A stretch of DNA of 64,000 nucleotides from a virus. Positions 17,064-41,816 of the stretch are shown one piece after another. The translations under genes were made by a program, and so were the position numbers. Positions within the stretch are counted from its first letter, which is position 1; every line of letters starts with the position of its first letter. The DNA lies in IMG/VR virus record IMGVR_UViG_3300020162_002681, positions 82,233 through 146,232 of that record; one strand, 5' to 3'. The notes under the pieces are model-generated. The model saw only the letters and a list, made by a program, of their open reading frames with translations. It did no database searches and was not told where the DNA came from.

Positions 17064-17880
17064 CTATGATAGCAGAGATTGGAGAGCTTCTTGCCTAGCG
17101 GTATAAGCAAGTTCTGGTGTATCAAACGTACCAATATAGATTTTTTGTTTGTTTACGACTAATCGAGCTTCATACTTGTCGTATTTACCTTTTTTATACA
17201 CACCAGACGGTAGCTTTCGGGATTTTTTGGGGCTGGTCAGTTGAGCCTTATCTAATTCTTCTTTTACAGAGCTATCTTTGTCCCAGTAAAATTTTTCAGC
17301 TAAGATTCTAACATAACAAGCTTCTTTCTCTGTTTCGTAAGACCCCAGATAGATTGATTTTTTTATTTACCTTAATACTTGTTTCCCACCTTGCACCTTC
17401 GGATTTCCTATAGGCACTATCTCCCCTCTTTCTTCTCGATTCTATCATAAGCGTCTTATTTTCTTCTGAATGAGTTTTTCCGTAAAAGGGATTATTCTTA
17501 CCTAATGTTTGCTGTTTCTTTTTTATTTTTCTGTGAGGCTCATCTTCAGATATTTTACCAAAAGCTCTAGTAGACCTAGTTTGGTTGTAGCAAAGTTTCC
17601 AATCTGTAATTGAATCTAGGTAAGTTTGTTCAATATCTAATAAATCCTCATTGCTCTTATTTTCACAATTTTCTAAAACTTCTATATTAAAAATAGAATC
17701 CCCATGCAGATTGAAAACTCTTTGTAAATGCTTATTATTGTGTGTCTGCTTCCTTAATTTGTAAAAATGCTCCCTAATCCTAATTCTAATGTTTTGGCTA
17801 CTGCCAATGTAGAAGAATTTAGAGTCTGTATTGGTTATTTTGTAAATACCTTTAATATTAGGTATATTGTTTAAATCCAT
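17064..17880 (-). pseudogene. GIY-YIG homing endonuclease with NUMOD3 and two AP2-like domains, frameshifted at an A7 run
   Basis: GIYKITN...FYIGSS; NPFYGKTHSEE; removing one A at 17358-17364 restores KKSIYLGSYETEKEA...KIYIGTFDTPELAYTAR to the stop at 17064. Confidence 0.85.
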
Positions 17881-18036: not shown

Positions 18037-19272
18037 TTAGGAGATGATTGTTTGACCCCTAGAACTATCGAAAGTCAGGAAGTCTGCAAGAGAAATAGAC
18101 GACGCAATATTTACATTTTTTGCAACCTTACGTGCCATTCCGCATTTCGCGATAGTCGGACACGCTATGAGCTGCATCGAGACCGACTCAGAAATATCTA
18201 AAATTGGGGTCTTAGACCATGTTCTTTGGAAAATTCCTGCCCGTTGATTGTTCTCGATAGTTCCGCCAAGAATACGGTTAAATTGTCCTTGACGAGACAA
18301 GAATACAACAGTACCTTCATCCAACAAACGAGTCGGTGCTGAAGCGCCATTCGCATCACTAAGCTCAACTTGTCCATCTTCAAGAACAAACTTAGGCAAG
18401 AAACGACGACTCATTACTTCGTTAAGTTGGTCAATAGAAGGTGTGCCAGTGATTACGTTACCAATAACGTTAGCAGCAACTACAGCTTCTTTAACAGACT
18501 TACAACGAGCAATATTCAAAAGCAAGCGCTCAGAGATTGCAATTTCGTCAGCAGGGAAACCATTAGTGTACTTGTACTGAGTGTGCATATCTGCAAGGTC
18601 TTGCAGAGGGTCAGCAGTTTCGTGCTGAGTCCAATCACGCTTCAATGAGTCAACAGTTTCAGTCCCAGCAAAGTCGGTTTGGTAGATTGGAAATGGAAAG
18701 TGGTTGGCGCGAATGCCGATTGCCTTTGTCCAGTCCAAGTCTGCGCGTAGACCTGTACGTTGGTCAGTGTACTGCATCTTACCAGTCTGCAATGTCTGCC
18801 AAGCCAAGTAGTCGATAAGGTTAATGTGACCGCGAACAAGCGAAGCAAGAGTACCAAAGATATTCTTGGCGAGTTCGTTATCTTGACCGAGTTGAACCTT
18901 ACCTTCCGAAACTTGAATGTTCTGAATGGTGATGTTGCGAATCTTAGCAAGCTCAGAAACCTCAGCCATTCTCCATTGGGTATCTTCATCCCAGTGGTAA
19001 GCAATCGCAGCTTTGTAGTTACGAGCTTGAATTTTGCTGAAGTCTCCTTTTTTAGCTTCAGGATAATCTTGTCCTGTAGCTACGAGAGACGCAATGGGGT
19101 CAACAGTTGTCGAGATGTAAGCAAGCCAGTCACGACCAGTCTTCTCAACCAAAGGAACGTAAGTATTGAGAACCTTAGAGCGTTCCTTCAACTGACGGAG
19201 GGTGTTGTTTACAACGAGGTCGGCAGCTTTAGCAGCGCGTCCTTCTTTTAAGAAATTTTCAATGTATGCCAT
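18037..19272 (-). CDS. Major capsid protein (lambda gpE-like)
   Basis: 411 aa; WQTLQTGKMQY...LDW and WT...ADPLQDL motifs of the gpE family; follows protease, scaffold and decoration genes. Confidence 0.85.
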   Translation of the reverse strand: MAYIENFLKEGRAAKAADLVVNNTLRQLKERSKVLNTYVPLVEKTGRDWLAYISTTVDPIASLVATGQDYPEAKKGDFSKIQARNYKAAIAYHWDEDTQWRMAEVSELAKIRNITIQNIQVSEGKVQLGQDNELAKNIFGTLASLVRGHINLIDYLAWQTLQTGKMQYTDQRTGLRADLDWTKAIGIRANHFPFPIYQTDFAGTETVDSLKRDWTQHETADPLQDLADMHTQYKYTNGFPADEIAISERLLLNIARCKSVKEAVVAANVIGNVITGTPSIDQLNEVMSRRFLPKFVLEDGQVELSDANGASAPTRLLDEGTVVFLSRQGQFNRILGGTIENNQRAGIFQRTWSKTPILDISESVSMQLIACPTIAKCGMARKVAKNVNIASSISLADFLTFDSSRGQTIIS

Positions 19273-19290: not shown

Positions 19291-20202
19291 TTATTTGTTG
19301 AAGTATGGTTTAATGTGCAAGTGCAGACCAAACAAACGCTTCAATTGGCGGTCAACGTAGGGCAAGTTATTTTGGTAGACTCCTGCAATCTCAGAGATAA
19401 CTGCAAAGTCCCGTTTAGGTTCGCCAGTCAAATCTACAGGGTCAGGATATAAGCCAAGAACTTCAGCAACATCGATACCAACAATAGAGTTGATAGGTAG
19501 AGCTTGAGCAGCATTAGCAGCCAAAGTTACAACACGAACACCAGTGGTAGCATTTTCAGCACCAATTGCAAGAATCGTACCAAGAGGAGTGAGGTTGTTA
19601 CCTAAGAAACCAGCTTCAGTGGTTTGAACTACGACTTGACCAGCAGCTCCTGTTGTTGCGAAGTAAATATCGTAACTATCGTCAGCGTAAATGGTAGCAG
19701 CAGCCGTCGAAGAGACTTGAGCGATTGTGATGCCAGCAGCCAACAGAGCAGCAGCATTAGCAGTGATAAAGTCAGCAACAGCACCAGCACCAGTTTGAGT
19801 AGCACCAACAGTAGCCGAGTAGGTCACACCAGCGATACGAGCAGTGATAACATCAGAAGTTGCAAAAGTACCGATGAACTTAACTAGAGCGTAGCAATGC
19901 TTTGCGTATAGAACGTCGCCCACTTTAAATTGAGAGCAAGGAGACTTGAGAGAAACAGAAGCCGAGTTAGTTGCGGTTGCAGCAGCAAGGCGAGTGCGAG
20001 GCAAGAAACGTGCGACTCTAGAGCCAGAGACACCAGTAGTAGCGATAAATGAACCTTCGGGAGCTACAGTCTTCCCTTCGGCATTAAGTAGGATATCGGC
20101 GCTATTAATCTGAACGGCATCGATTGCAACTTTCTTAGCTGCGGCGTTGAAGATAATAGCTCTACCGTTTTTGGTAATTGCTTGAGTTGTTAAATAAGTC
20201 AT
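19291..20202 (-). CDS. Head decoration protein
   Basis: Ala/Thr-rich, immediately upstream of the capsid gene (gpD position), C-terminal GVYQNNLP. Confidence 0.6.
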   Translation of the reverse strand: MTYLTTQAITKNGRAIIFNAAAKKVAIDAVQINSADILLNAEGKTVAPEGSFIATTGVSGSRVARFLPRTRLAAATATNSASVSLKSPCSQFKVGDVLYAKHCYALVKFIGTFATSDVITARIAGVTYSATVGATQTGAGAVADFITANAAALLAAGITIAQVSSTAAATIYADDSYDIYFATTGAAGQVVVQTTEAGFLGNNLTPLGTILAIGAENATTGVRVVTLAANAAQALPINSIVGIDVAEVLGLYPDPVDLTGEPKRDFAVISEIAGVYQNNLPYVDRQLKRLFGLHLHIKPYFNK

Positions 20203-20217
20203 TGTGTTTTATGCTCC

Positions 20218-21099
20218 TTATAGTCCGAAATCCAGACCCATAGCAATCAAGTCACCTTTGGCGGCTTCTTCAAGGCTAGATGAGAAATTAGCAGTTGCAA
20301 CTTCTTCAGCACTAACACTGAAATCGGTGAACTGAGTAACATTAGCAATATTACGGAGCAAGCTATAAGCGAACTCCGACATATTAAGTTGTTCTTGCAA
20401 GTCACGCGCACCGTTAGTTTGAGCGATACCACTAAACTGAGCTACTCGTTGGCGAGGGTCAGAGAAGTTACCGATAAGAGCTTCCTTCATTGCTGGGGTA
20501 ATAACACCATCAACAACGTCTTGGCTAATACGTGCGTTCAAGTCGCTCAACGCTTGGGAAAGTTGTGCTTCAAAGTTAGCTTGTGCAAAGTTAGCTTCAA
20601 GAGCTTCTTTTTCTGCGCGTAGCTTTTGAATTTCACTAACTACAGTCTTATTAAAGTTAGCTTGGATTGCGGGGTTATAAGCAGCCGCATAATCTGCTCC
20701 TTCTTGTGCCATATCTGGTTCTACGCCTCCTTCAGCGTCATCCGTATCATATTGAGCTTCTAGAGCTTGTTTATCCTGTTCTAAGACTCCATCAGCAACT
20801 TCGATAATTTGTTCAATATCTTCATCGTTAGCGTCAGGGAAAGCTCCAATCATTGCTTCGAGAATATTGACATCATCAACAATGTTTTCACCGCTAATGT
20901 AGCCAGTTACATCTTCTTCACTCAGTCCAGTAGATTGAACGAGAGCTTGAATACCAGCATCAATGTCGCCTTCATATTGGGCTTCAATTAAGTCTAGAAG
21001 TAATTCGCCAAAAGCATTGGTTGGATTGAGTTCGGTCATTTCCTGACCTGCCCCTTCCATACCAGCGTCCTGAGCGCCTAAATCTTGTTCTTCATCCAT
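20218..21099 (-). CDS. Capsid scaffolding protein
   Basis: Very acidic with a coiled-coil segment and four ANF motifs; upstream of the decoration and capsid genes. Confidence 0.65.
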   Translation of the reverse strand: MDEEQDLGAQDAGMEGAGQEMTELNPTNAFGELLLDLIEAQYEGDIDAGIQALVQSTGLSEEDVTGYISGENIVDDVNILEAMIGAFPDANDEDIEQIIEVADGVLEQDKQALEAQYDTDDAEGGVEPDMAQEGADYAAAYNPAIQANFNKTVVSEIQKLRAEKEALEANFAQANFEAQLSQALSDLNARISQDVVDGVITPAMKEALIGNFSDPRQRVAQFSGIAQTNGARDLQEQLNMSEFAYSLLRNIANVTQFTDFSVSAEEVATANFSSSLEEAAKGDLIAMGLDFGL

Positions 21100-21130
21100 T
21101 TTTATTATTTTCGTTTTTTAGGATTAAAAC

Positions 21131-21166
21131 AATAATGCCACACTAATTTCTCAGCATGGCATTATT
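21131..21166 (-). terminator. Hairpin/terminator between the cargo cluster and the scaffold gene
   Basis: AATAATGCCA...TGGCATTATT inverted repeat. Confidence 0.5.
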
Positions 21167-21189
21167 TATGGTTTTTTCCCGTAAGTGGA

Positions 21190-22842
21190 TTATTCTATAG
21201 GAATGTTAGGAATTTTACCCCTTTCTTGGGGGTTTGGGTTGGTTTTTGCCATACCTTTATTTTTACTTCTCCAGTCTTGCAGTTGCTTTTGATTGAGTCC
21301 GTAGCCAGCCGCCGAACCAACTCCACGACCCACAGCTCCCCCAGCAGCACCTAGTCCAAGCACTTTACCAGCACGCCCAACCAAACCTGTACTTCTGCGT
21401 TGCTCTTCTGTCTCATTAATCCCAGCTCCCTCAAGAACCCCCAAACCAGCACCTACAGCAGTACCTACATTAGCAGGGTTAATTTGTGGAGAGAGATTCA
21501 TAAAACGTTTTGCAGTTCCAGCAGCAGCCTTTTGAGCGCCTTGAACCAGACCCGTAGGAATCATGCCAAATGATGCAGACTTACGAACTGTCTTATTGTA
21601 ACGAGCTTCATCTTCCTTTTTTCTTAGCCCATTAGCGGCAAGCAATCCACCACCAGCAAGTGCAGTACCACCAACTCCGATAGCAGCAAGTCGAGCAGCT
21701 TTATCAGTGTCAAGAACCTTGGCAGCACCTTGTAATGCATCGTAAGTACCAGCAGCCGCCTTGTTAGCTCCTCCATTGAGTCTAGAGCCAATAATAGGAA
21801 TACCACCTAAAAATTTATCTGTGGTGTTGATTTTGCCAGCAGCCTTACGAACTGCTTTAGCTGCGGGTTGTGTGATATACTTACCTGCCGAGGTCAACGC
21901 ACTGTTAATTTGTGCACCAATTCCAAAATTCGCTTCTTGTTGGTGTTTTAGGAAGTTTGCAGATTTGCGGATTTCTTTATTAAAGTACTTACCAGTTGGC
22001 TTGCCAGATTCAATCATCGAGTTGATGTCCTTAACTCCCATGCTTGCTGGGATTTTAGGTTCTCTCAACTTCTTTTTCTGCATCTTACCTTTAAGTGTTG
22101 TTTCAAGGGTAACAACTCCAGTATTGTCTTGAGGGATATAGGTACTACCTTTTTGGATTAGTCTTTGAATTGTAGCTGGGTCTTGGAAATTAGCCGCTTT
22201 GCGAATTGATTTGCTCATATCTATTGTTTGTCCATTAAGTCCTTGGTTAGTTGCTCCTGTTGGCTTGCGTCGAAACACATTACCAAAGAATTGCTTAGTT
22301 GTTTCAATGTCTTGTTGTGCTTTACCAGCAGCCCTGTCTAGAAGTGAAGGTTGACTACCACTAGACTGACGTTGTAAATCTTCATTCATTCTAGCTTCAC
22401 GTTGCTCTAGATTAGGATTAACAATCTTTTGAACTTCCTGCTTAACATTCTGAATTTCGTCACTTACAGCTCTTCCAGTATCTTTGACTACTTTAACTGC
22501 TTTACGGATGCCTCTAGGGTTAGCTGCTTCATGTTCAGCCACAACAGCTTCTCTACGTTGTAACTCTCTTTCTGGAGCTTTAGATAAATTGTAGCGATTA
22601 GCCGCATATCCAGCACCAGCCCCCAGTCCAGCACCTACAGTCGTGCTTGTCAGTACTTTACCTAAACGATTGCCAACATTAGTAGCTTTCTTTTCTGCAT
22701 CTGACTCCAGAACTCCAGAGCCTTGTAGCAATCCAACTCCAGCACCAACACCAGCACCAATTTTCACTGCGTTAGGGAGGGCAGAAAGGAGGGATGGTTT
22801 GGCAAACTCAGCTTTTTTTTGTAGTAGTGATTTTTTATTCAT
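21190..22842 (-). CDS. Modular Gly/Ala-rich putative capsid-cargo polyprotein (Gly-zipper modules, KTSC-like domain)
   Basis: Likely start MNKKSLLQKKAEF at 22842 (TAATG overlap with the upstream stop); AEF, three ANF and ASF delimit modules. Confidence 0.65.
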   Translation of the reverse strand: MNKKSLLQKKAEFAKPSLLSALPNAVKIGAGVGAGVGLLQGSGVLESDAEKKATNVGNRLGKVLTSTTVGAGLGAGAGYAANRYNLSKAPERELQRREAVVAEHEAANPRGIRKAVKVVKDTGRAVSDEIQNVKQEVQKIVNPNLEQREARMNEDLQRQSSGSQPSLLDRAAGKAQQDIETTKQFFGNVFRRKPTGATNQGLNGQTIDMSKSIRKAANFQDPATIQRLIQKGSTYIPQDNTGVVTLETTLKGKMQKKKLREPKIPASMGVKDINSMIESGKPTGKYFNKEIRKSANFLKHQQEANFGIGAQINSALTSAGKYITQPAAKAVRKAAGKINTTDKFLGGIPIIGSRLNGGANKAAAGTYDALQGAAKVLDTDKAARLAAIGVGGTALAGGGLLAANGLRKKEDEARYNKTVRKSASFGMIPTGLVQGAQKAAAGTAKRFMNLSPQINPANVGTAVGAGLGVLEGAGINETEEQRRSTGLVGRAGKVLGLGAAGGAVGRGVGSAAGYGLNQKQLQDWRSKNKGMAKTNPNPQERGKIPNIPIE

Positions 22843-23291
22843 TAGTTGTTCCAGTGATGTGCTACAGTATTTCCGAGTAGACCTGTTACAGCACCTAATC
22901 CAGTATAGCTTGCTTGTTGACCTAAGCCTTTTAGACCAGCCCAACGTTGCAGTTTAGCGGATTCATAGTCAGCTTTAGATTGTGCTTTTTCGATTGCCGA
23001 AGCACGTTGCTTAGGGTCTTCAAGTTGTTGTGCAGCCTCCAGTTGAGCAGTTAAGGCTTGGTTGTGACGCTCAGTGGGGTCAGCACTACGTCTCAGAGCT
23101 TTCGCTTTGGTTTGAGCAGCAGCAGCCCGACCTACTTCAGAGCCAGCAAGACCTCCTAAAGTAGTACCAAGATAATCACCAACACCTTCACTTACTAAGG
23201 CTGAAGGGTCGAAGAAGTTTGCAACCGCTTTATCGTATGCACGTTTGAACTGCGAGTAAGTTGAATTATGTTTGCGAAAGAATTTAGCCAT
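22842..23291 (-). CDS. Putative capsid internal protein
   Basis: 149 aa; leader ends AVANF|FDP; Gly-zipper segments. Confidence 0.6.
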   Translation of the reverse strand: MAKFFRKHNSTYSQFKRAYDKAVANFFDPSALVSEGVGDYLGTTLGGLAGSEVGRAAAAQTKAKALRRSADPTERHNQALTAQLEAAQQLEDPKQRASAIEKAQSKADYESAKLQRWAGLKGLGQQASYTGLGAVTGLLGNTVAHHWNN

Positions 23292-23299
23292 ATATTTTC

Positions 23300-24628
23300 C
23301 TATTGTAATGCCTCCCAGTTAGCACGTTTTAATCCAGTCCTAAGTACTGACCTAACATCTCCATTGAGAACTGAATCAATAATTCTATTCTTGGAGTCAT
23401 CATCGATAAACCTATTCTGAGCTTTGTTTAGCAGTCCTCGGCGCAGTTGCTTATCCTTAATACCATCAAGAGCAGCTAACTTCTGAGCTTCAAACACTTC
23501 ACTCTGTTCATCTGCGGCTTTCTTTTTGTTGTAAATACCATAAGCTGCACTACCGATAGCTAGGCTAGGGGTAATGAAAGGGTCGAAGAAGTTGGCAGTC
23601 TTACTTGTACCTCTAGAGTATTTAGCAGTACCTTTAGGTTTAGCTTGTTGTTGTGCAGGAGTTAGTCTATCAAGGGGATTGTCTGTAACACTAGCTAACA
23701 AAGGATTACCAGTAATATTAGCAGCCTCACGAATCAGATTATCTGCGTGGTACTGAGGACTGTCGAAATAATTAGCCGCAAAGTCTTGGGCATTCTTATC
23801 TTTGAGGCTATTTACCTTGTAAGCATCCAACGCTCTTTGCTTATTGAGCTTAGATAACAAACCGTACCCAGCTACTAAGGTTCCCCCAACAGCAGCTAAA
23901 GGCAGAGCTTTTTCTTTTTTAACGAAGAAAGGATTGCGAACACCAATTTTAGGGAATGCAAAATTCGCTGGAGCCACTAAAGGCGCAGCACTGAAGAAAT
24001 TGTAAGGTACTTTAGGCTGAGTAGATTGTTGTTGTGCTTGTCTTTGTTCCAATAGCAGATTCCTCTTTGCAATAATTTCAGCCACCTTATCTCGATGACC
24101 TTGTGCCTGTGCTTGCTTTTCTTGTTCGACTTCTTTGTTTTTGTTATTTTGGTATATGGCTGTACCTGCGGCGATAGGGGCAAGGGTCAGTCCTCCTAAA
24201 GTTCCGTAGATGGCATTCTCACCAAAGCCTCTATCAATCAACTTATTGGCGACATGATTGACGACAGGAGTGACCAGAGGAATTCCACCACCACCCGAAA
24301 ATTTGTCCCGCAGTCTTTGAGTTTCTGCATCGGCAAGCGCAGCTCTCTTAGCAGCTACTCTTTGACCTTGAGCACTACCTATCTCTGCTTGTGTGGGAGG
24401 GACTACAGGAGGCGCAGGAGGATTTAATTCTTGCAACCTCTTGTTATATACATCTTTACCCTCGGCTTGCAATCTTTTTTGTGCGAGAAACTTCTCAGCC
24501 TCAGTCATTGCAGAAGGTACTGGGTTTGCAGTAGCTTGCAACCTTCTCTTCTGCCTCATCCCAGCATTATAAATGAGAGCAGACTTCCCGCCTCTAGGAT
24601 TTTGTCTCACAGCAAATTCGCTTAGCAT
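23300..24628 (-). CDS. Modular putative capsid-cargo polyprotein
   Basis: 442 aa; MLSEF, PANF, AANY and TANF|FDP, with hydrophobic Gly/Ala segments. Confidence 0.6.
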   Translation of the reverse strand: MLSEFAVRQNPRGGKSALIYNAGMRQKRRLQATANPVPSAMTEAEKFLAQKRLQAEGKDVYNKRLQELNPPAPPVVPPTQAEIGSAQGQRVAAKRAALADAETQRLRDKFSGGGGIPLVTPVVNHVANKLIDRGFGENAIYGTLGGLTLAPIAAGTAIYQNNKNKEVEQEKQAQAQGHRDKVAEIIAKRNLLLEQRQAQQQSTQPKVPYNFFSAAPLVAPANFAFPKIGVRNPFFVKKEKALPLAAVGGTLVAGYGLLSKLNKQRALDAYKVNSLKDKNAQDFAANYFDSPQYHADNLIREAANITGNPLLASVTDNPLDRLTPAQQQAKPKGTAKYSRGTSKTANFFDPFITPSLAIGSAAYGIYNKKKAADEQSEVFEAQKLAALDGIKDKQLRRGLLNKAQNRFIDDDSKNRIIDSVLNGDVRSVLRTGLKRANWEALQ

Positions 24629-25644
24629 TTAGCTGCACTTCCTCTTACATACTTTTTGACAGTACCTTTCGATAGGTTAAACAGAGCCAACTTATTAGTC
24701 CCCCGCTTGTATGTGGTTTGTTGTTGTAACTGAGGGATAGTCATCCCACTCTCAGTCCCTCCTTGCAACTGTGCTTGGGTCTGTGCCGCTTGGTCTTGAG
24801 GAGTCATTACCCCAGCCTGTGCTTGCTGATTCATTTGTTGCATCAACTGAGTCAAACCGAGTAGTTCGATAATCTTGACGCTGAATCCATTCAATTGTGA
24901 GTAAATCAACTGCAATAGAACTTCGGGGCTGTCAATGTTAATCGCATCATTGTCGTAAGCGTTCTTGAGTAGGAGCCAAAGCTTTTGGCAGACATCATTG
25001 TACTCTTCTTGCAAGTCATCGATTTGTTGGTCACTAGCATCAAGCTCGTCCCAAGTTACAGCATTCGAGGAGTCTGGAATACCTGTAAAGTTAGCAGTCA
25101 TTGCTTTGCTTACTTTCTTGTGGAAAAGCCCCATGTTAGGGATTGCTGGAATAGGTACTAGAGACAGCTCCATAATACGATGTTCATTTGGGTCAAGGTT
25201 TAATCCCATGCTGACGCTCTTAACACCACTACGCAATGCTTCGATTCCTTTGGCTGCTGCAACTTTAACACCAGACAAGAACATTCCAAGCTTACCAACT
25301 AGATGCTGAGAATTTTGGTTAGGTAAATCTTCTTCTGTGATAACTTTGGTGTAAGCGCGTCCACTAATGCTTCCGATAGTATTTGGAATATCTTTCTTGT
25401 GGTCTGCACAAACGGGAACGACAGTACCGCTATCAATAGCTCGATTAGTATGCTCAACGATTGTATTTAAACGTTCGGCACTAAAATCGTGTTCAATATC
25501 TGTAGAGTCGGTGAACTTACCCTCAGTGGCAACGAGTGCGGTATATTCACTTTTAATTGGAGTGCCAGATACCAACACCTGCCCCAACTCAAAGTTGGCT
25601 CTTGATGCTGGGGCTTTAAAATAGGCGATGTTGGTTTTCTTCAT
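24622..25644 (-). CDS. Prohead maturation serine protease
   Basis: VCADH, KSVSMG and MELSLVPIPAIPNM motifs of the Mu gpI/HK97-type protease; located in the head cluster. Confidence 0.8.
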   Translation of the reverse strand: MKKTNIAYFKAPASRANFELGQVLVSGTPIKSEYTALVATEGKFTDSTDIEHDFSAERLNTIVEHTNRAIDSGTVVPVCADHKKDIPNTIGSISGRAYTKVITEEDLPNQNSQHLVGKLGMFLSGVKVAAAKGIEALRSGVKSVSMGLNLDPNEHRIMELSLVPIPAIPNMGLFHKKVSKAMTANFTGIPDSSNAVTWDELDASDQQIDDLQEEYNDVCQKLWLLLKNAYDNDAINIDSPEVLLQLIYSQLNGFSVKIIELLGLTQLMQQMNQQAQAGVMTPQDQAAQTQAQLQGGTESGMTIPQLQQQTTYKRGTNKLALFNLSKGTVKKYVRGSAAKC

Positions 25645-25670: not shown

Positions 25671-26453
25671 TTATATACCAAACGCTTGCTTAGCTTTAGT
25701 TAGGTATGCTAATCTATCATCCCAACCATTTGTCCCACCATTTATGATGCGGGTGATACTCTCGAAATCATCTGCATCTGCGTAATCATTTAGGTTTCGA
25801 CTTGACCAGAACCACCCTGCACCAATAGGGGCAAGTTCGTCCGTTCCTAGCAACGAAGGGTTAGCTACCAAGTTAATACCCTTGTACTTAGGGTCAAGGT
25901 CAAGGTAGTCAGTCAATTCCTGATAGTTAGCTCTCCCAGTTACTTGAATAAAACTGCGTCCTTTAAAACGTACACCATCACCTTTATAATTATTGCCGAG
26001 GTCGCGCCGCCATTCGTAGTCAGCACCACTTGCATACTCTTCATTAGTATTGAAGCCGTCACTCTCATGGGCAATTTGGGCTAAAAAATGACAAATACGA
26101 AGAGGTGTATTGATTCCGTACTTAAAAAGAGCTGCGTTGATTGGTTCGAGTATAGCTTCTATCCTTTCCCATCCAACATGTGTAGCAATGTTCCCTAGTT
26201 GCTCACGCGACAGAAAAAAAGGTTTGATGAATTTAGGGTCGTTAAGCTCAATGTGGAGTCTCCACGCATACACGTAAACATTCTCAGCTACTTCAAGTTG
26301 TACATGACCATCATCAGTGTCACTCCAAGATAGAAACTCACCAACCTTTTGACCTTCAAGAAATTCGCGCTTCTCTCCTTCTTTCAACGCAGAGGATTGA
26401 AGCGGTTTTAGCTTGAACCAAGTGTTCTCTTTGATAGTTGCTATGTATTTCAT
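25671..26453 (-). CDS. Endolysin, glycoside hydrolase family 19
   Basis: HFLAQIAHES, DGVRFKGRSFIQVTGRANY, ITRIINGGTNGWDDR. Confidence 0.92.
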   Translation of the reverse strand: MKYIATIKENTWFKLKPLQSSALKEGEKREFLEGQKVGEFLSWSDTDDGHVQLEVAENVYVYAWRLHIELNDPKFIKPFFLSREQLGNIATHVGWERIEAILEPINAALFKYGINTPLRICHFLAQIAHESDGFNTNEEYASGADYEWRRDLGNNYKGDGVRFKGRSFIQVTGRANYQELTDYLDLDPKYKGINLVANPSLLGTDELAPIGAGWFWSSRNLNDYADADDFESITRIINGGTNGWDDRLAYLTKAKQAFGI

Positions 26454-26457
26454 CTTT

Positions 26458-26871
26458 TTACTTGATGAGCTTCAAAAGGTTGAGAGGGTTCTTGACAACA
26501 TCAACTACTTCTTGTGCATCATCAATCACATCTTGCACAGTATTCAGTGTAGTATCTACAACTACATTCACAGACTCATCTTTGCCTAGTGGCAAGCTGA
26601 TTGTTTGGACTTCTGGGTTTTCAAGCACTTGCGATTTACTCTTCCCAAGAGGTTCCCAATTTGGCGTATAAAGATTAGGCTCATTCTTCATTTTTTCAGC
26701 ACTAACTCCAAGTCCCGCTAAAACTACAACTAGTAAATTCAAGTACTTATCTACTGTCCCGCCATTTTTAATGATGTCACTGATATTGGGGGTAGATGCA
26801 GTTATTAGACCTATTGCCAAAGAAATAAAAGTGTTGGTAGTGAACAGATTTCTAGGTTGAGGAGTAGACAT
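26458..26871 (-). CDS. Putative holin
   Basis: Two hydrophobic segments, directly upstream of the endolysin. Confidence 0.55.
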   Translation of the reverse strand: MSTPQPRNLFTTNTFISLAIGLITASTPNISDIIKNGGTVDKYLNLLVVVLAGLGVSAEKMKNEPNLYTPNWEPLGKSKSQVLENPEVQTISLPLGKDESVNVVVDTTLNTVQDVIDDAQEVVDVVKNPLNLLKLIK

Positions 26872-26911
26872 GAGGGATACGCTATTATAGGTATATGGTC
26901 TTTATTTTATC

Positions 26912-27154
26912 ATGAACGACAAATTACTATTTAACCAGCAAGTCGGAGAGAAGCTGCGTAGCTTACGCAAGGCTAGGAATAAGTCTCAGGCTAGTGTTGC
27001 GGCAGATTTTGCTTTCGGGCAAGATGTTGTTAGTGAAATTGAGCGTGGGGTTAAAACAATTAGTGCATTTGAGCTGGTAGCTTTCAGTGCATATTACGAA
27101 AAACCGATTACCTACTTCTTTATGAACTCGGCGCTACCCACTAAAAATTCTTAA
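26912..27154 (+). CDS. XRE-family helix-turn-helix regulator
   Basis: VGEKLRSLRKARNKSQASVA...VSEIERG...YFF. Confidence 0.88.
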   Translation: MNDKLLFNQQVGEKLRSLRKARNKSQASVAADFAFGQDVVSEIERGVKTISAFELVAFSAYYEKPITYFFMNSALPTKNS

Positions 27155-27725
27155 AATGTTTGAACGAACTAGACATCGGTGCTATTTGAGGGGAACCTTT
27201 TCCACGTAATTTAGACAATACTCCGCCAGCACTTTTTATAGCTGCTAAACCTATCTTTGGCGCATCATGAAAGTACATCTTAGGTCTTGTCACTATTTGC
27301 TTTTTAGCCGTCTCTAGTGCAGCTTTACCAGATTCCTGCATAACCTCTCTTGGCGTTAATTTACGTCCAAGCTGTTTACTTTTATCCGCAACTCCTCGAA
27401 CATTTCGATAGGTTGCCGCCATACCATCAGCAATCGGATTTCCCCAGCCTTCACTATCACGCAACACATGACCACCAGTTTCAAGTGCTGCCTTAGCAAC
27501 TCGTTGTGGCAGCTTATCGCCAGCATTGGCTTGGTAAGTGTCTTTAGCTGTCTTTGCCCATTTAGGGAAGTTAGGGGCATTCATGGCTACGGGAAGTGCA
27601 CTCATGTCACCAAAACTAGGATGATAACTATATACCGCATTTCTAGCTGCATCAAAAGCTGAAGGAATATCAACGTGTTGCAGAGCTTGAAGCCCCTCAA
27701 ACATAAAGTCAGCTTGTCTGGTCAT
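27141..27725 (-). CDS. Putative capsid internal protein (MTRQADF leader)
   Basis: 194 aa, basic and Ala-rich; ADF at residues 5-7. Confidence 0.55.
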   Translation of the reverse strand: MTRQADFMFEGLQALQHVDIPSAFDAARNAVYSYHPSFGDMSALPVAMNAPNFPKWAKTAKDTYQANAGDKLPQRVAKAALETGGHVLRDSEGWGNPIADGMAATYRNVRGVADKSKQLGRKLTPREVMQESGKAALETAKKQIVTRPKMYFHDAPKIGLAAIKSAGGVLSKLRGKGSPQIAPMSSSFKHFKNF

Positions 27726-27833: not shown

Positions 27834-29474
27834 CTAAAAGTGACTGACGATTTGGACACTTCGAGCCACGTTATTAACTATATTTTTTTCTGCCCCAACA
27901 AAGTTGAGTGCCTCTATTCCTGATTCTACTATTCGGGGTAAGTTAGCTGCATCAGGTGACGGTAATCTAGGTGTTGTGAAAGTCGAGTATATGGCTTTGG
28001 CTGTTGCATTTCCTAGTGATTTATTAGAGGCAAGTAGTGCAAGTCCAGCAACGAATGCAGTAGCTGCAATAGCAATCTTAATTGGTGTACCTAAACCGCC
28101 TTGAGGTGGTCGATTAGGAGGTTGTTTCTTAGGGTCGAAATCTTCTTCATCAACGTCTTCCACTAGAGTCCAGAAGCACTGGCACTGTACATGAAAAGGT
28201 ATAGAAGGTTTGCTGTGATTACGCCACACAGTTCCCCCGCCTTTTTTATAATTAATAACGTCACCTGCACTTCTTTGGTTTTCAAGTATCTCAAATAGGA
28301 AATACTCAAGTCCATCTTGAAGTTCACAATCTTCACATGGTACAGGGTCAGTTCTTTTACTGCCGCTTGCTAATCTTTTGTAACGACTAATCAGCGCATA
28401 CTCTCTATCAACATTCCATCTGAACCTCTTGTATCTATCAGCTTTTCCTCCAAATGCAGCTATCTTCCCAAAATTGTATGCGATGTTCAATTCAGTCTTT
28501 ACAATGACATCTGGCGATTGTTGCTTAAATGCACCTTGCAAGCCAGTTTGGTCTTTGTTAATAATATTGCGAATACGCACTTTTAATAGGTTGAGGTCAT
28601 ATTCATATTTGTTTCGTTGAGACTTGATGTTGGTGATGTACTCGCGGTTGTCTGCGAGAAATAGTGCGACAGCTTTGCGGATTTGCTTATTGCTTTCAGT
28701 CGAGTAAGAGGCTTGTAATACTCGACGGCGCTTACCTAAATAGTTGCTCGATATGAAGTTCTGTTTCTCGTCACTACTACCATACAAAAAGTTCATCATG
28801 GCAGCTTTACCTGCATTGGTGCTATCACTTATCTTGTTGAGCATATAAACGTTGCGGGATACTTCATCGGCTATTTTGACTCGCTCTTGCACGTTGGCTA
28901 AGTCATTAATATTAGTTTGCTCGGCTCGTTGCTTCAGCAGGTTGTTGACGGCATTTCTGGTCAAGCTATACCTTGCTCGATTTTGCATATTTTGCCCGTA
29001 ATCATCATTGGCTGCAAACTCAGCCGCTAACTCTTTAGTGTCTTCTGCAATAACTACACTGTCAAAATACTTGCGAATATCGTCATCACCATACTCATAA
29101 AGATAGTCATACATCTGATGCCTCAGCGCCAACTTAATCATCGACTCAAAATTAGTGGTCAATACCTTGTTAAACTCAACTTGCACCTTTAGAAAGTACT
29201 TGTCGGTAACATCGCTTACATTCTTTTCTGCAAACTTGTCAAACAATTGGTCTGGCACTTCATAAATACTTGCATTCGATTTAGCAATCCACTTAGCTAG
29301 TTCATCGACAAACGTGGTCTTAGCAAACTCACTATTAATTGCCATACGAACACCCAAAATAGATTCAGCCAAGGCTTTGAAGTACTCTTGCGTCTTAAAC
29401 TCTTTGAAACTATTGGACTGTCTACGCATGGTGCTAAGATTATTAAGAATATGTATATCTATATAGTATGACAC
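27834..29474 (-). CDS. Minor head protein, SPP1 gp7/Mu gpF-like
   Basis: KTELNIAYNFG, CEDC and IPFHVQCQC motifs; C-terminal hydrophobic segment; the true start may be MRRQ (~29429). Confidence 0.75.
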   Translation of the reverse strand: MSYYIDIHILNNLSTMRRQSNSFKEFKTQEYFKALAESILGVRMAINSEFAKTTFVDELAKWIAKSNASIYEVPDQLFDKFAEKNVSDVTDKYFLKVQVEFNKVLTTNFESMIKLALRHQMYDYLYEYGDDDIRKYFDSVVIAEDTKELAAEFAANDDYGQNMQNRARYSLTRNAVNNLLKQRAEQTNINDLANVQERVKIADEVSRNVYMLNKISDSTNAGKAAMMNFLYGSSDEKQNFISSNYLGKRRRVLQASYSTESNKQIRKAVALFLADNREYITNIKSQRNKYEYDLNLLKVRIRNIINKDQTGLQGAFKQQSPDVIVKTELNIAYNFGKIAAFGGKADRYKRFRWNVDREYALISRYKRLASGSKRTDPVPCEDCELQDGLEYFLFEILENQRSAGDVINYKKGGGTVWRNHSKPSIPFHVQCQCFWTLVEDVDEEDFDPKKQPPNRPPQGGLGTPIKIAIAATAFVAGLALLASNKSLGNATAKAIYSTFTTPRLPSPDAANLPRIVESGIEALNFVGAEKNIVNNVARSVQIVSHF

Positions 29475-40127: not shown

Positions 40128-40845
40128 TCCAATCGAGCAAAAGTTAAAATCACTACGCAACTTGAATAGTGGTCAGCCCGAATTACAAAAGCTAACTATT
40201 CACAAACTCAGCAAGACAAGCTGGGTCAACTGGAATCATATTAGGCAAGCGTATATTCTTGGCAAGCGTATTGAAGAGTTCGACGAGGAGACGGGGCATA
40301 CACGAATTTGGTCTGAGAGCTACAACTTAGAGGAACTGGCACGAGAGTTTGGTGTTGGTGTCAGTCAGCTAACGAAGAAATCTGCAATTGAAGGTTGGGG
40401 TGGATTGCGCGATAGCTATTTGGCGCGAGTACAGGAGGAGGCGCTTGGTACTGAGCTTGGCTATTTCACTAATGAGGAGAGCGAGACTGAGGCAAACAGC
40501 TTGGCTATCATTCGTAAGGGTATGAAGCTGATTAACTTGGGACTTGAGCAAGAGTACGGAGACTTACTTGAGGCTGTGGACGCTGATGGTGATGTGGACT
40601 TGCGTGAATATAGTAAGGTCAACTTGAAGGCTTTAGCTGAGGGAATCAAGGGGTTGAAAGCACTGCATGAACTACATGGCAAGATAATGGAAAATGCCCC
40701 TAAAACTAATCAGGAGCTGCTAGAACAATTGAATCGCAGTAAGACGGTGGAGAGACTAAAGAATCCTAAAGAACGTGAGAAACTGCAAAAGGAGCTACAA
40801 AAGAAATTGCAACTCCTTAGTCAGATTGAAGAGGATGAGGACTAA
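40120..40845 (+). CDS. terS: Putative terminase small subunit
   Basis: WNHIRQAYILG...LEELAREFGVGVSQLTKKSAIEGW helix-turn-helix followed by helical oligomerisation-like region; near TerL. Confidence 0.6.
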   Translation: MSSPIEQKLKSLRNLNSGQPELQKLTIHKLSKTSWVNWNHIRQAYILGKRIEEFDEETGHTRIWSESYNLEELAREFGVGVSQLTKKSAIEGWGGLRDSYLARVQEEALGTELGYFTNEESETEANSLAIIRKGMKLINLGLEQEYGDLLEAVDADGDVDLREYSKVNLKALAEGIKGLKALHELHGKIMENAPKTNQELLEQLNRSKTVERLKNPKEREKLQKELQKKLQLLSQIEEDED

Positions 40846-41816
40846 GCTAAGTTGTCCATGTCTTGATATGCTTTACGTCTCTTGTACATGGTGTTGCTAA
40901 CCCTTGCGGCGTTCTCACCAGCAAGACCTAAACTTCCGCCGACAACTCCACCAGCAGCAGTGTTACCAAGAACTTTGCCAAGCCGACCTAATCCTGTAGT
41001 GTTAGCTTTTTCTTCTTCTGTCTCACCAATGCCAGCTCCTCTAGCCAGCCCAGCAGCAGCCCCAAGCCCTGCGCCAATCTGTACACCTCTAGTTGCACCA
41101 AATGCTTGAGCCGTATCCTTAAGTGCGCCTCCAGCAGCTTTAGCGTTGTTTAAGTAAGGCTGAGCTTTGTTTAGCATTGAAGGTAATGGGTTTGTAAAAC
41201 CGAAGTTAGCGAAGTGTTGCATGTTTTTGTGTTGTGTGAAATTGATTCTACTATTGTAGCCTGTCATAAATGGCTTGCCTAATCTCTTAGCCGCATATAG
41301 GTTCTTTACTTCAGCTTCGTCATACTTATCTTTAATATTCTCAATTGCTGCATTATCGATAAGCCTAGCTTCGCGACGCTTTGGGTTGGGGTGTACTATA
41401 TTTCCTTCGTGTATATCGACATGACCAAGATTTTGCTCACGTAGACGATTTTGGATACGACCAACTTGGCTCCCCAGTTTATACTGCTCCTTTGGTGCTA
41501 TACCTTTTAATTTGTTAGGTAGAGGTTGACCAGCGTAATCTTGCGTGTAGGAGGTCATATTGCCACGTTCACGGTAGTTTTGCACTGGAGGCACTAGTCC
41601 TGTCGTTGTAGCTGCTTTACCTGCATTTGTATATTCTTTTCTACTGGCTTTTATGGCTGCTGCTCTGACTTGAGGTGACTCAGGGTAGTAAGTACCGTCA
41701 GGGAGAATGTTGTCGATGCGTACCTTGTTTGTGGCAGGGAAATGTAGTACACGCTTATCTGGTGTGAGAAGAAGTGCTTTGGCGTTACGGATACGAGCGA
41801 AGGATGAGATGTTCAT
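40842..41816 (-). CDS. Protein kinase-like (Bud32/RIO/Kdo-type) domain fused to a Gly-zipper module
   Basis: KEYTN, VPPV, HVDIHEGNI (HxDxxxxN) and RLID; then MQHFANF and the Gly-zipper module. Confidence 0.75.
   Translation of the reverse strand: MNISSFARIRNAKALLLTPDKRVLHFPATNKVRIDNILPDGTYYPESPQVRAAAIKASRKEYTNAGKAATTTGLVPPVQNYRERGNMTSYTQDYAGQPLPNKLKGIAPKEQYKLGSQVGRIQNRLREQNLGHVDIHEGNIVHPNPKRREARLIDNAAIENIKDKYDEAEVKNLYAAKRLGKPFMTGYNSRINFTQHKNMQHFANFGFTNPLPSMLNKAQPYLNNAKAAGGALKDTAQAFGATRGVQIGAGLGAAAGLARGAGIGETEEEKANTTGLGRLGKVLGNTAAGGVVGGSLGLAGENAARVSNTMYKRRKAYQDMDNLA

Follow-up and report, generated by a model that had tools for sequence, protein, structure and literature searches.

A phage-encoded assemblin-fold protease is predicted to cleave tagged head proteins after A-x-F in a Pseudanabaena cyanophage

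A Pseudanabaena cyanophage with a complete genome of 146 kb, a siphophage akin to Pam2 and PA-SR01, is predicted to mature its head by a system resembling those of T4, phiKZ and the herpesviruses, with a new cleavage specificity, A-x-F↓ (estimated probability of this reading, about 0.7). Five adjacent ORFs on the minus strand, 1,813 aa in all, form a head block punctuated by this tripeptide, and we infer that the tag is cut after its Phe by the phage's own protease. All coordinates refer to the window, the whole stretch of 64,000 nucleotides that was analyzed.

Results

A-N-F is concentrated in the head block

A-N-F is the commonest tripeptide across the five head ORFs, where its 12 copies compare with the 0.42 that composition predicts (Poisson 3.8e-14); in 20,000 shuffles within proteins, the count never rose above 5. 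Its density in the block, 6.6 per 1000 aa, is 41-fold that of the remaining genome (0.16 per 1000; Fisher 5e-13). Those remaining 44,163 aa hold 7 copies, 4 of them within three further glycine-zipper proteins, such that head-block or glycine-zipper proteins account for 16 of the 19 copies in the whole genome, and A-N-F is absent from every tail and early ORF of the 64-kb window. A chance origin of the excess is excluded. Recent DNA copying of the tag is likewise ruled out, because codon usage varies from one A-N-F site to another.

The initial annotation had reported 13 A-[N/E]-F motifs in these ORFs (two in the protease, two in the 442-aa ORF, one in the 149-aa ORF, four in the 550-aa ORF and four in the scaffold), two of which continue as F-D-P after A-N-F, and had proposed comparing head with tail and early proteins. 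Our recount returned 12 A-N-F and one A-E-F, with every string present, identical counts in each ORF and both F-D-P continuations, and the distribution described above agrees with the expected enrichment. Its definition of the motif as A-[N/D/E]-F holds with respect to the fixed Phe and the preference for N, E or D at P2, but is too narrow, the motif being A/S-x-F. Similarly, the region it delimited (20218-25644) contains all five tagged ORFs, but the system extends outside it, for example to a 324-aa ORF at 40842-41816. Three head-block sites were additional to its list, namely S-E-F in the 442-aa ORF (residue 5), A-L-F in the protease (residue 322) and A-Q-F in the scaffold (residue 222).

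A predicted assemblin-fold protease carries the motif on both sides of its catalytic domain

The 340-aa ORF matches phrog_976 and is predicted to be a capsid maturation protease. This assignment is supported by a catalytic domain with the assemblin fold of capsid maturation serine proteases, by a His and a Ser about 50-70 residues apart together with a third residue, and by the location typical of capsid proteases, in a head module where its gene adjoins the scaffold and major capsid genes. Its predicted parts and sites are as follows.

24622..25644, minus strand: predicted precursor of the prohead protease, 340 aa, comprising a leader (1-18), the protease domain (19-186), an acidic helical domain (187-322) and a basic tail (323-340)
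25591..25599, minus strand: N-terminal leader site A-N-F, P1 = residue 18 (Phe in 32/32 aligned homologs; flank conservation 0.30; pLDDT <50)
25087..25095, minus strand: site A-N-F after the catalytic domain, P1 = residue 186 (in 16/17 homologs having the segment; disordered stretch 177-192)
24679..24687, minus strand: site A-L-F ahead of the basic K-Y-x-R tail, P1 = residue 322 (Phe in 28/34 and Tyr in 5/34 homologs)

As the initial annotation had stated, the two A-N-F motifs bracket the catalytic domain, and in the structural model both P1 residues, 18 and 186, fall in disordered segments. The sites at residues 186 and 322 are analogous to the herpesvirus R and M sites, respectively. Judging from conservation among aligned family representatives, His82 (145/145) and Ser145 (144/147) are likely the catalytic pair, and Glu159 (147/148) may be the third catalytic residue; H82, S145, E159 and S161 are retained in 144-147 of 150 representatives, Ser161 being as conserved as the others. 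Not all x-F strings are tag sites; the G-L-F with which the protease fold ends is invariant and probably structural.

The gene order protease, cargo ORFs, scaffold, 303-aa ORF and major capsid protein (MCP) is common to the window and 10 related loci. Direct searches with the Pfam model PF10123 (Mu-like_Pro) gave no match at E ≤ 1 in the genome or among 34 homologs, and hhalign of the 340-aa ORF against Mu gpI returned a probability of 0.4. For the PA-SR01 ortholog, an HHpred match to Mu protease I (PF10123, E 4.5e-18) has been reported (PMC10286775).

Cutting at the tag would divide the scaffold into acidic and the cargo polyproteins into basic fragments

The scaffold is assigned by position, with the cargo ORFs on one side and the MCP gene on the other, and was kept in 11/11 related loci examined. 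Its most distal site, A-x-F-S around residue 272, is invariant in 8/8 aligned scaffolds and recurs in 3 further loci, with N, S, Q or E at P2. No internal A-N-F occurs in the 411-aa MCP.

20218..21099, minus strand: scaffolding protein, 293 aa, acidic, five A-x-F sites
20653..20661, minus strand: A-N-F closing the acidic N-domain, P1 = residue 149 (A-x-F in 7/8 aligned scaffolds, within a poorly conserved linker)
20572..20595, minus strand: pair of A-N-F, P1 = residues 171 and 176 (relatives keep one A/S-x-F nearby)
20434..20442, minus strand: A-Q-F, P1 = residue 222 (Phe 8/8, A/S 8/8, P2 = R/Q/K)
20284..20292, minus strand: A-N-F, P1 = residue 272, 21 aa before the C-terminus (proposed release site of a shell-binding tail)
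18037..19272, minus strand: major capsid protein, 411 aa (phrog_29, E=4e-20; 78% identity with the MCPs of Pam2 and PA-SR01)

Three putative cargo ORFs separate the protease from the scaffold.

23300..24628, minus strand: 442-aa cargo polyprotein made up of three basic helical modules, all containing a hydrophobic helix rich in Gly/Ala
24614..24622, minus strand: S-E-F of the 442-aa ORF, P1 = residue 5, very short leader (P3 A/S and P1 Phe in 25/25 homologs)
23960..23968, minus strand: A-N-F of the 442-aa ORF, P1 = residue 223 (Phe 26/26, Ala 25/26, P2 = N/E)
23588..23596, minus strand: A-N-F of the 442-aa ORF, P1 = residue 347 (Ala 26/26, Phe 26/26, P2 = N/D)
22842..23291, minus strand: 149-aa small cargo protein, basic leader of 26 aa and a Gly-zipper body
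23214..23222, minus strand: A-N-F of the 149-aa ORF, P1 = residue 26
21190..22842, minus strand: 550-aa cargo polyprotein (ATG start), leader of 13 aa followed by five modules; a double Gly-zipper module of ~75 aa lies at each end
22804..22812, minus strand: leader A-E-F of the 550-aa ORF, P1 = residue 13
22186..22194, minus strand: A-N-F of the 550-aa ORF, P1 = residue 219 (retained in Pam2 gp17)
21952..21960, minus strand: A-N-F of the 550-aa ORF, P1 = residue 297 (retained in Pam2 gp17; A-E-F at the matching place of a PA-SR01 403-aa ORF)
21925..21933, minus strand: A-N-F of the 550-aa ORF, P1 = residue 306
21568..21576, minus strand: variant A-S-F of the 550-aa ORF, P1 = residue 425, before the second double Gly-zipper module (A-S-F also in Pam2 gp17)

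The predicted fragments differ in charge: those of the cargo have pI 8.2-10.5 (9.3-10.2 for the 442-aa ORF), and those of the scaffold, together with the protease C-domain, pI 4.1-6.3. The 442-aa ORF has no Pfam or PHROG match, and its site 223 sits in the non-helical stretch of lowest pLDDT of a low-confidence model, such that placement in a linker is weak. In the 550-aa ORF, jackhmmer recovered two copies of the module (1e-25 and 1e-31). We use "glycine zipper" as a descriptive term for G-x-x-x-G runs, with no family assignment; the Pfam models PF13441, PF13488 and PF05433 gave no match at E ≤ 1, and a weak Atlas lead to PF13441 scored 0.76.

The motif is conserved while its surroundings drift

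In relatives at 40-50% identity, P1 Phe and P3 Ala/Ser are fixed at aligned sites, with P2 and the flanks drifting; Phe and Ala are retained where flanking conservation is just 30-50%. Across the N-terminal leaders of 141 protease-family representatives, A.F ranked top of 400 (i, i+2) residue pairs (82 vs 20.9 expected, 4e-24), and in the wider family it was also in excess in the 30 aa following the protease domain (49 vs 17.6 expected) and in the C-terminal 45 aa (41 vs 19.9 expected). Cargo-zone ORFs have leaders or linkers ending in the motif, as processed internal proteins of the T4/phiKZ type do in the motif of their own protease, and A/S-x-F occurs in the first 32 aa of 23/41 protease-to-scaffold ORFs vs 15/89 neighboring ORFs (Fisher 9e-6). 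Together, these data support A-x-F as a motif conserved throughout the family, in which Phe is fixed and P2 is preferentially N, E or D. In the cargo zone taken as a whole, A.F was outside the top enriched pairs in 3/6 distant loci (L014, L017, L019) and also in L023 and L025; site density therefore varies.

The claim that the tagged proteins are modular is strengthened by these relatives, in which, besides the repeated Gly-zipper modules, cargo ORFs fuse, split and gain cassettes precisely at the tags. Two homologs of the 442-aa ORF carry an extra Gly-zipper cassette at site 347, flanked by A-E-F and A-N-F, and in PA-SR01 the matches to the 550-aa ORF are split among four shorter adjacent ORFs, all with the Gly-zipper module and two of them initiated by the tag. 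Counterparts of the 149-aa ORF in six loci (L014, L015, L017, L023, L024, L025) have a leader closing with A-N-F at residues 22-27. Leaders of just 5-7 aa are kept on single-module genes, for which the separation of modules is not a sufficient explanation; they suggest an additional role or another one, for example in targeting. The tag also forms short N-terminal leaders, and it may therefore function both in targeting and in cutting.

Tagged proteins are found in virions of a relative and outside the head block

Pam2 and PA-SR01 are both in culture. In the presence/absence table of Pam2 virion mass spectrometry (MS), gp15, gp17 and gp189 are positive, while gp14 (protease), gp18 (scaffold) and gp16, the counterpart of the 149-aa ORF, were not found (PMC9382816, Table S2). 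The positive proteins are homologs of the 442-aa, 550-aa and 324-aa ORFs, respectively, so the earlier proposal that the polyproteins are packaged gains ground for both of them and for a third tagged protein, but not for the small one. The 324-aa ORF is the sole carrier of A-N-F in the window apart from the head block and has the double Gly-zipper module in common with the 550-aa ORF; its homolog gp189, annotated as casein-kinase-like, carries A-D-F at the place of the tag.

40842..41816, minus strand: 324-aa kinase-like protein, candidate tagged cargo (S-S-F leader at 41799-41807, internal A-N-F at 41202-41210, C-terminal double Gly-zipper module)
27141..27725, minus strand: 194-aa head-module ORF, possible further member (A-D-F leader, residues 5-7; C-terminus K-N-F)

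Discussion

In the mechanism that we propose, the 340-aa protease would read a small P3 residue (Ala, sometimes Ser) together with P1 Phe and cut after the Phe. It would free itself at three sites of its own, after the 18-aa leader, after the catalytic domain and before the basic C-terminal tail, and would cut the acidic scaffold at four to six sites, including the invariant A-x-F-S 21 aa from the C-terminus, whereupon the small acidic pieces would exit the shell. The basic cargo proteins would remain inside with the DNA, cut into modules of 8-24 kDa; every cargo gene or module bears its own A-x-F leader or linker, and most modules have a glycine-zipper helix or helix pair. The same products would result however the modules are joined, leaving genes free to fuse, split and take up cassettes at the tags, which is the pattern seen in the relatives. 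The leader may also help to load cargo into the procapsid, and the glycine-zipper peptides may act on membranes or on the packed DNA. We advance more tentatively, as a possibility short of even odds, that A-x-F is a portable load-and-cut tag: the protease or core would draw any bearer of the tag into the procapsid, where it would be trimmed. The capsid would then be a vehicle for effectors, carrying into the host, with the DNA, a variable collection of basic glycine-zipper peptides and of enzymes (the kinase-like protein among them), with cassettes swapped at tags.

An alternative is that the tag only docks, binding protease, scaffold, shell or portal for procapsid loading and staying uncut (a tag that both targets and is cut is grouped with cleavage). 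T4 internal proteins carry an N-terminal targeting leader and offer a precedent, the tag is N-terminal in most cargo ORFs, and short leaders persist on single-module genes, some ORFs starting with Met and then immediately the tag. We nevertheless consider targeting alone unlikely: several sites are internal to the scaffold, the protease domain has sites on either side, and Pam2 virions are without scaffold and protease. Moreover, fixed P3 and P1 with free P2 and P1' is the pattern read by proteases of the assemblin fold, and fusion or fission at the tag is neutral only given cutting.

Still less probable is a purely structural tripeptide, belonging to a repeated module or left behind by module duplication, with no part in signaling or cutting. 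The double Gly-zipper module is indeed repeated, often with the tag 5-35 aa before it, and two sites have 17/18 nucleotides in common over A-N-F-F-D-P; yet the scaffold and protease are tagged without having the module, codons vary among sites, Phe and Ala stay fixed amid poorly conserved flanks, and the sites in the protease model fall in disordered segments. Cleavage after Phe by a host enzyme has a precedent in Staphylococcus phage 80alpha, whose capsid and scaffold proteins are cleaved between F and A by the host protease Prp (PMC5744158), but a review of Prp does not mention cyanobacteria (PMC9405229). The Prp model PF04327 had no match in the phage or in a Synechococcus control genome, and the tag is inherited along with the phage protease family and present on the protease itself, which makes a host protease very improbable here. 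80alpha resembles the proposed system in its P1 Phe and in the trimming of short leaders off the N-termini of head proteins, and differs in that Prp, a cysteine protease of the host, has another fold and reads a longer, L27-like leader. To our knowledge, Prp is not known in cyanobacteria.

Cleavage by the phage protease after A-x-F would place this system among those in which assemblin-fold proteases read P3 and P1, with V/L-x-A↓S in herpesviruses, L/I-x-E↓ in T4 and S/A/G-x-E↓ in phiKZ and SPN3US (PMC5694885, PMC10052503). As with T4 gp21 and IPI-III, an assemblin-fold head protease would recognize a short P3/P1 motif (L/I-x-E in T4), the scaffold would be chopped small, and basic internal proteins with an N-terminal leader ending in the motif would be retained in the head; unlike in T4, P1 would be Phe and not Glu, the cargo consists of multi-module polyproteins and glycine-zipper peptides, and the phage is a cyanobacterial siphovirus. 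No sequence relation of the 340-aa protease to gp21 was detected. In phiKZ and SPN3US, gp175 and gp245 (S/A/G-x-E) process inner-body and ejection proteins (PMC5694885, PMC7411985, PMC10052503). Our phage would have in common with these a small P3, many processed head proteins (by propeptide removal and internal cuts) and much packaged cargo, whereas here P1 would be Phe, the genome is just 146 kb, tagged cassettes are the units in which cargo modules are shuffled, and cleavage is predicted. Herpesvirus pUL26 is likewise arranged, within a single chain, as protease, R site, scaffold part, M site and MCP-binding tail, and the predicted sites likewise lie after the protease domain and ~18-21 aa from the C-termini of protease precursor and scaffold; it differs in cutting A↓S after V/L-x-A, in its Ser-His-His triad, where the third conserved residue here is Glu159, and in that our scaffold is a separate rather than nested gene. 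The head gene order is also similar to that of phage Mu with protease I and scaffold Z (PF10123), for which we know of no defined cut motif.

Short-motif head proteases have been described chiefly in T4-like and giant phages, with P1 Glu, and in herpesviruses, with P1 Ala. If our reading is correct, cutting after Phe would be known for the first time in a head protease encoded by a phage, and A-x-F would add a new specificity class to the assemblin fold. Cutting at the tag would explain how the number and length of the genes between protease and scaffold can change freely, and the tag may be a simple handle for bringing foreign proteins into the heads of cyanophages. For this large group of cyanophages, most of them uncultured, the protein content of the mature virion would then become predictable directly from sequence.

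Genomic context and head gene order

The virus record is complete at 146,232 bp and has direct terminal repeats; the window covers its right 64 kb. The major capsid protein (MCP) is 78% identical to the MCPs of the Pseudanabaena siphophages Pam2 and PA-SR01, and a 340-aa head ORF is ~92% identical to its counterparts in the same two phages, which were the only named phages matching either protein. The head genes are as follows.

Head genes of the window
27834-29474, minus strand, 546-aa ORF
27141-27725, minus strand, 194-aa ORF
26458-26871, minus strand, 137-aa ORF
25671-26453, minus strand, GH19 lysozyme-like ORF (phrog_181, E 3.5e-54)
24622-25644, minus strand, 340-aa protease
23300-24628, minus strand, 442-aa ORF
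22842-23291, minus strand, 149-aa ORF
21190-22842, minus strand, 550-aa ORF
20218-21099, minus strand, 293-aa scaffold
19291-20202, minus strand, 303-aa ORF
18037-19272, minus strand, MCP

The GH19 (chitinase-like) ORF is of endolysin type and lies within the head module, immediately upstream of the protease; mass spectrometry of Pam2 virions did not find its counterpart (PMC9382816). The Ala-rich 303-aa ORF between scaffold and MCP is kept in all relatives and had no family match in Pfam or PHROG. Its Pam2 homolog, gp19, is present in the virion (PMC9382816, Table S2), and a role as second shell protein or as decoration protein is possible. A 190-aa ORF (17308-17880, minus strand) lies shortly after the MCP gene; by eye, its N-terminus resembles a GIY-YIG homing endonuclease. 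Upstream of the protease, synteny is kept family-wide (L017, L019, L024 and one further relative record) in the order terminase, ~600-aa protein, ~1,050-aa protein with a Laminin_G_3 hit, small reverse-strand ORF and ~550-aa head protein, and most of these relatives also carry a reverse-strand HTH gene in this block. Inteins occur in the relatives' terminase and, in one relative, in the ~550-aa head protein.

Identification of the 340-aa ORF as a capsid maturation protease

We identify the 340-aa ORF as the capsid maturation protease. Its match to the PHROG head maturation protease family is weak (E 1.7e-4), and an AlphaFold model built with 34 homologs is confident over residues 30-176, with disorder at 1-29, 177-192 and 294-340. 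The best Foldseek matches of this model were herpesvirus proteases, at weak E-values. The wider family comprised 227 clusters at E <= 1e-3, from which 150 representatives were taken; His82, Ser145, Glu159 and Ser161 are conserved in 144-147 of these. The precursor shares its layout with herpesvirus pUL26: the leader and the protease come first, then a site, a helical acidic domain, a second site and a short basic tail.

An HHpred match of the PA-SR01 ortholog to Mu protease I was reported by its authors (PMC10286775). The Mu-like protease model PF10123 had no match in the phage genome or among the 34 homologs, and hhalign of the protease against Mu gpI was not significant. The phage genome encodes no ClpP-type (PF00574) or Prp-type (PF04327) protease, scanning the five ORFs from protease to scaffold and the 34 homologs directly against Pfam returned nothing usable, and a profile search of PDB sequences found no relative of the protease. 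A predicted complex of the protease domain (19-190) with scaffold residues 248-293 scored 0.01, which gives no answer and bears neither way.

A-N-F is concentrated in the head block and in glycine-zipper proteins

The motifs and linkers listed in the initial annotation for the five ORFs are all present in the sequence. Across these 1,813 aa, A-N-F occurs 12 times vs 0.42 expected from composition (Poisson 3.8e-14), more often than any other tripeptide of the block; in 20,000 shuffles within proteins, the maximum count was 5. The rest of the genome (44,163 aa) holds 7 A-N-F vs 8.7 expected, and the tail and early ORFs of the window hold none. Because the Ala, Asn and Phe codons vary from site to site, the repeats are maintained at the protein level, and the motif did not arise by recent duplication of DNA.

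Three further proteins, each with glycine-zipper segments rich in G-x-x-x-G, account for four of the seven occurrences outside the block.

Tagged glycine-zipper proteins outside the block
40842-41816, minus strand, 324-aa ORF
138-aa ORF, with the tag directly after the start Met
240-aa ORF, with one tag close to each end

Head block and glycine-zipper proteins, taken as one class, thus hold 16 of the 19 A-N-F in the genome (Fisher 5e-18). No clear excess of proteins ending in Phe was seen (16/250 ORFs).

Several protein ends share a longer sub-motif, [Q/K]-H-F-x-N-F, which follows the start Met of the 138-aa ORF and forms the final residues of the 194-aa ORF (27141-27725, minus strand) and of another small ORF. 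It also lies within the 324-aa ORF, and one PA-SR01 ORF opens with it. The sub-motif ORFs outside the window are at genome positions 76377-76766 and 26790-27206, both on the minus strand. The MCP, whose N-terminus reads M-x-[I/V]-E-x-[F/W], keeps [A/S/E]-D-F near its C-terminus, 13 aa from the end here and 2-3 aa in distant relatives; a 47-kDa gel band of PA-SR01 fits an MCP of nearly full length (PMC10286775).

The tag is inherited with the protease family

Among relatives the tag is kept as A/S-x-F with Phe fixed. Among 34 aligned proteases sharing 40-93% identity, 32/32 have Phe and 30/32 have Ala or Ser at the N-terminal site, where flank conservation is 0.30; the C-terminal site has Phe in 28/34 and Tyr in 5/34, followed by a conserved K-Y-x-R tail. 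Across 26 members of the 442-aa family, with identities as low as 40%, the three sites have Phe in 25/25, 26/26 and 26/26, with N, E or D at P2. The scaffold carries A-x-F-S 21 aa before its C-terminus in 8/8 aligned sequences and at three more loci (P2 N, S, Q or E); Phe is kept in 8/8 at a second site, and two more sites survive within an otherwise unalignable linker.

With no motif specified in advance, all 400 (i, i+2) residue pairs were ranked by enrichment in those parts of 141 protease-family representatives that lie beyond the catalytic domain on either side. A.F ranked 1 in the N-terminal leaders (82 vs 20.9 expected, 4e-24), 3 in the 30 aa past the catalytic domain (49 vs 17.6) and 2 in the last 45 aa (41 vs 19.9). 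The commonest P2 residues were N (25) and E (23), and P1' varied, with Ser foremost. The tag is inherited together with the protease family, and its pattern is the one predicted for sites at which a protease processes itself by reading P3 and P1. Across the entire cargo zone between protease and scaffold in L014, L017, L019, L023 and L025, five relatives' loci, A.F is outside the top enriched pairs; aligned sites and leaders are present.

Cargo genes behave as tagged cassettes

Related phages carry three to eight ORFs of widely differing length between protease and scaffold, and these cargo genes act like tagged cassettes. A/S-x-F occurs in the first 32 residues of 23/41 cargo-zone ORFs vs 15/89 neighbouring ORFs (Fisher 9e-6). 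In PA-SR01, four shorter adjacent ORFs divide the matches to the 550-aa ORF among them, each with the glycine-zipper module and two with a tag directly after the start Met. The 442-aa ORF has two homologs in which an additional glycine-zipper cassette of ~120 aa sits exactly at the third site, between A-E-F and A-N-F. If tags are cut, such fusion, fission and cassette gain would be cost-free because the final products are unchanged. At one further locus (L018, protease 42% identical), tail-like genes come after the protease, so it is uninformative on cargo.

The 324-aa ORF and both ends of the 550-aa ORF share a ~75-aa double glycine-zipper module (jackhmmer, 1e-25, 1e-31). An Atlas search with a glycine-zipper module yielded one weak lead and otherwise viral clusters without names; the AF2 model of the 442-aa protein, with a mean pLDDT of 45, was not good enough for a fold search. 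Pam2 gp189, the homolog of the 324-aa ORF, retains the site as A-D-F. The Pam2 record annotates it as casein-kinase-like, an assignment that concerns the N-terminal 200 aa of the 324-aa protein and has a published HHpred probability of 0.94; the 324-aa ORF itself had no kinase match in Pfam or PHROG.

Predicted products and virion composition

Cuts at the tags would yield cargo pieces of 8.7-23.6 kDa, all computed to be basic (pI 8.2-10.5), and would break the scaffold into pieces of 0.5-15.9 kDa whose pI of 4.1-6.3 is acidic to near-neutral; the predicted protease C-domain is likewise acidic (pI 4.1). By mass spectrometry, Pam2 virions contain gp15 (the 442-aa homolog), gp17 (the 550-aa counterpart, 640 aa), gp19, gp20 (MCP) and gp189 (PMC9382816, Table S2), and gp14 (protease), gp16 (149-aa counterpart) and gp18 (scaffold) are not marked there as virion-found. 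Taken together, the predicted pieces and the Pam2 table resemble the T4 pattern, in which basic pieces remain with the DNA and acidic ones leave.

Alternative explanations and proposed mechanism

A tag that serves docking only and stays uncut would account for the very short leaders, but would leave unexplained both the multiple scaffold sites and the missing scaffold and protease in Pam2 virions; we consider it unlikely. That the tag is purely a structural or duplicated element is quite improbable, given that it occurs in unrelated proteins, with differing codons, in disordered segments. Cutting by a host protease has a precedent in Prp, which cleaves the F-A bond in head proteins of 80alpha (PMC5744158), but Prp is undescribed for cyanobacteria (PMC9405229), its model had no match in the phage or in a Synechococcus control genome, and the tag is inherited with the phage protease, which makes a host enzyme scarcely credible.

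The reading we favor, at a probability of roughly 0.7, is a head whose scaffold and cargo are processed by a protease; systems of this kind are known, and this one would differ in its predicted A-x-F specificity, which would be new, and in a cassette-like cargo set. The main lines of the Phe-specific head processing put forward in the initial annotation, namely the protease, the tag and the modular cargo, are supported; the decisive step, cutting after Phe by the 340-aa protease, we infer from the P3/P1 reading of same-fold proteases, the positions of the sites and the evolutionary pattern. In the literature searched, with subscription journals largely outside it, we found no phage-encoded head protease cutting after Phe, which does not prove absence, and the sole Phe-P1 case was host Prp (PMC5744158).

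In the proposed mechanism, protease, scaffold and tagged cargo would co-assemble within the shell, the tag likely serving both docking and cutting. The protease would then cut after the Phe of A-x-F, releasing itself, freeing the C-terminal tails of its precursor and of the scaffold from the shell, shredding the scaffold and splitting the cargo modules apart. For the resulting glycine-zipper peptides, membrane insertion during infection and DNA condensation are candidate functions.
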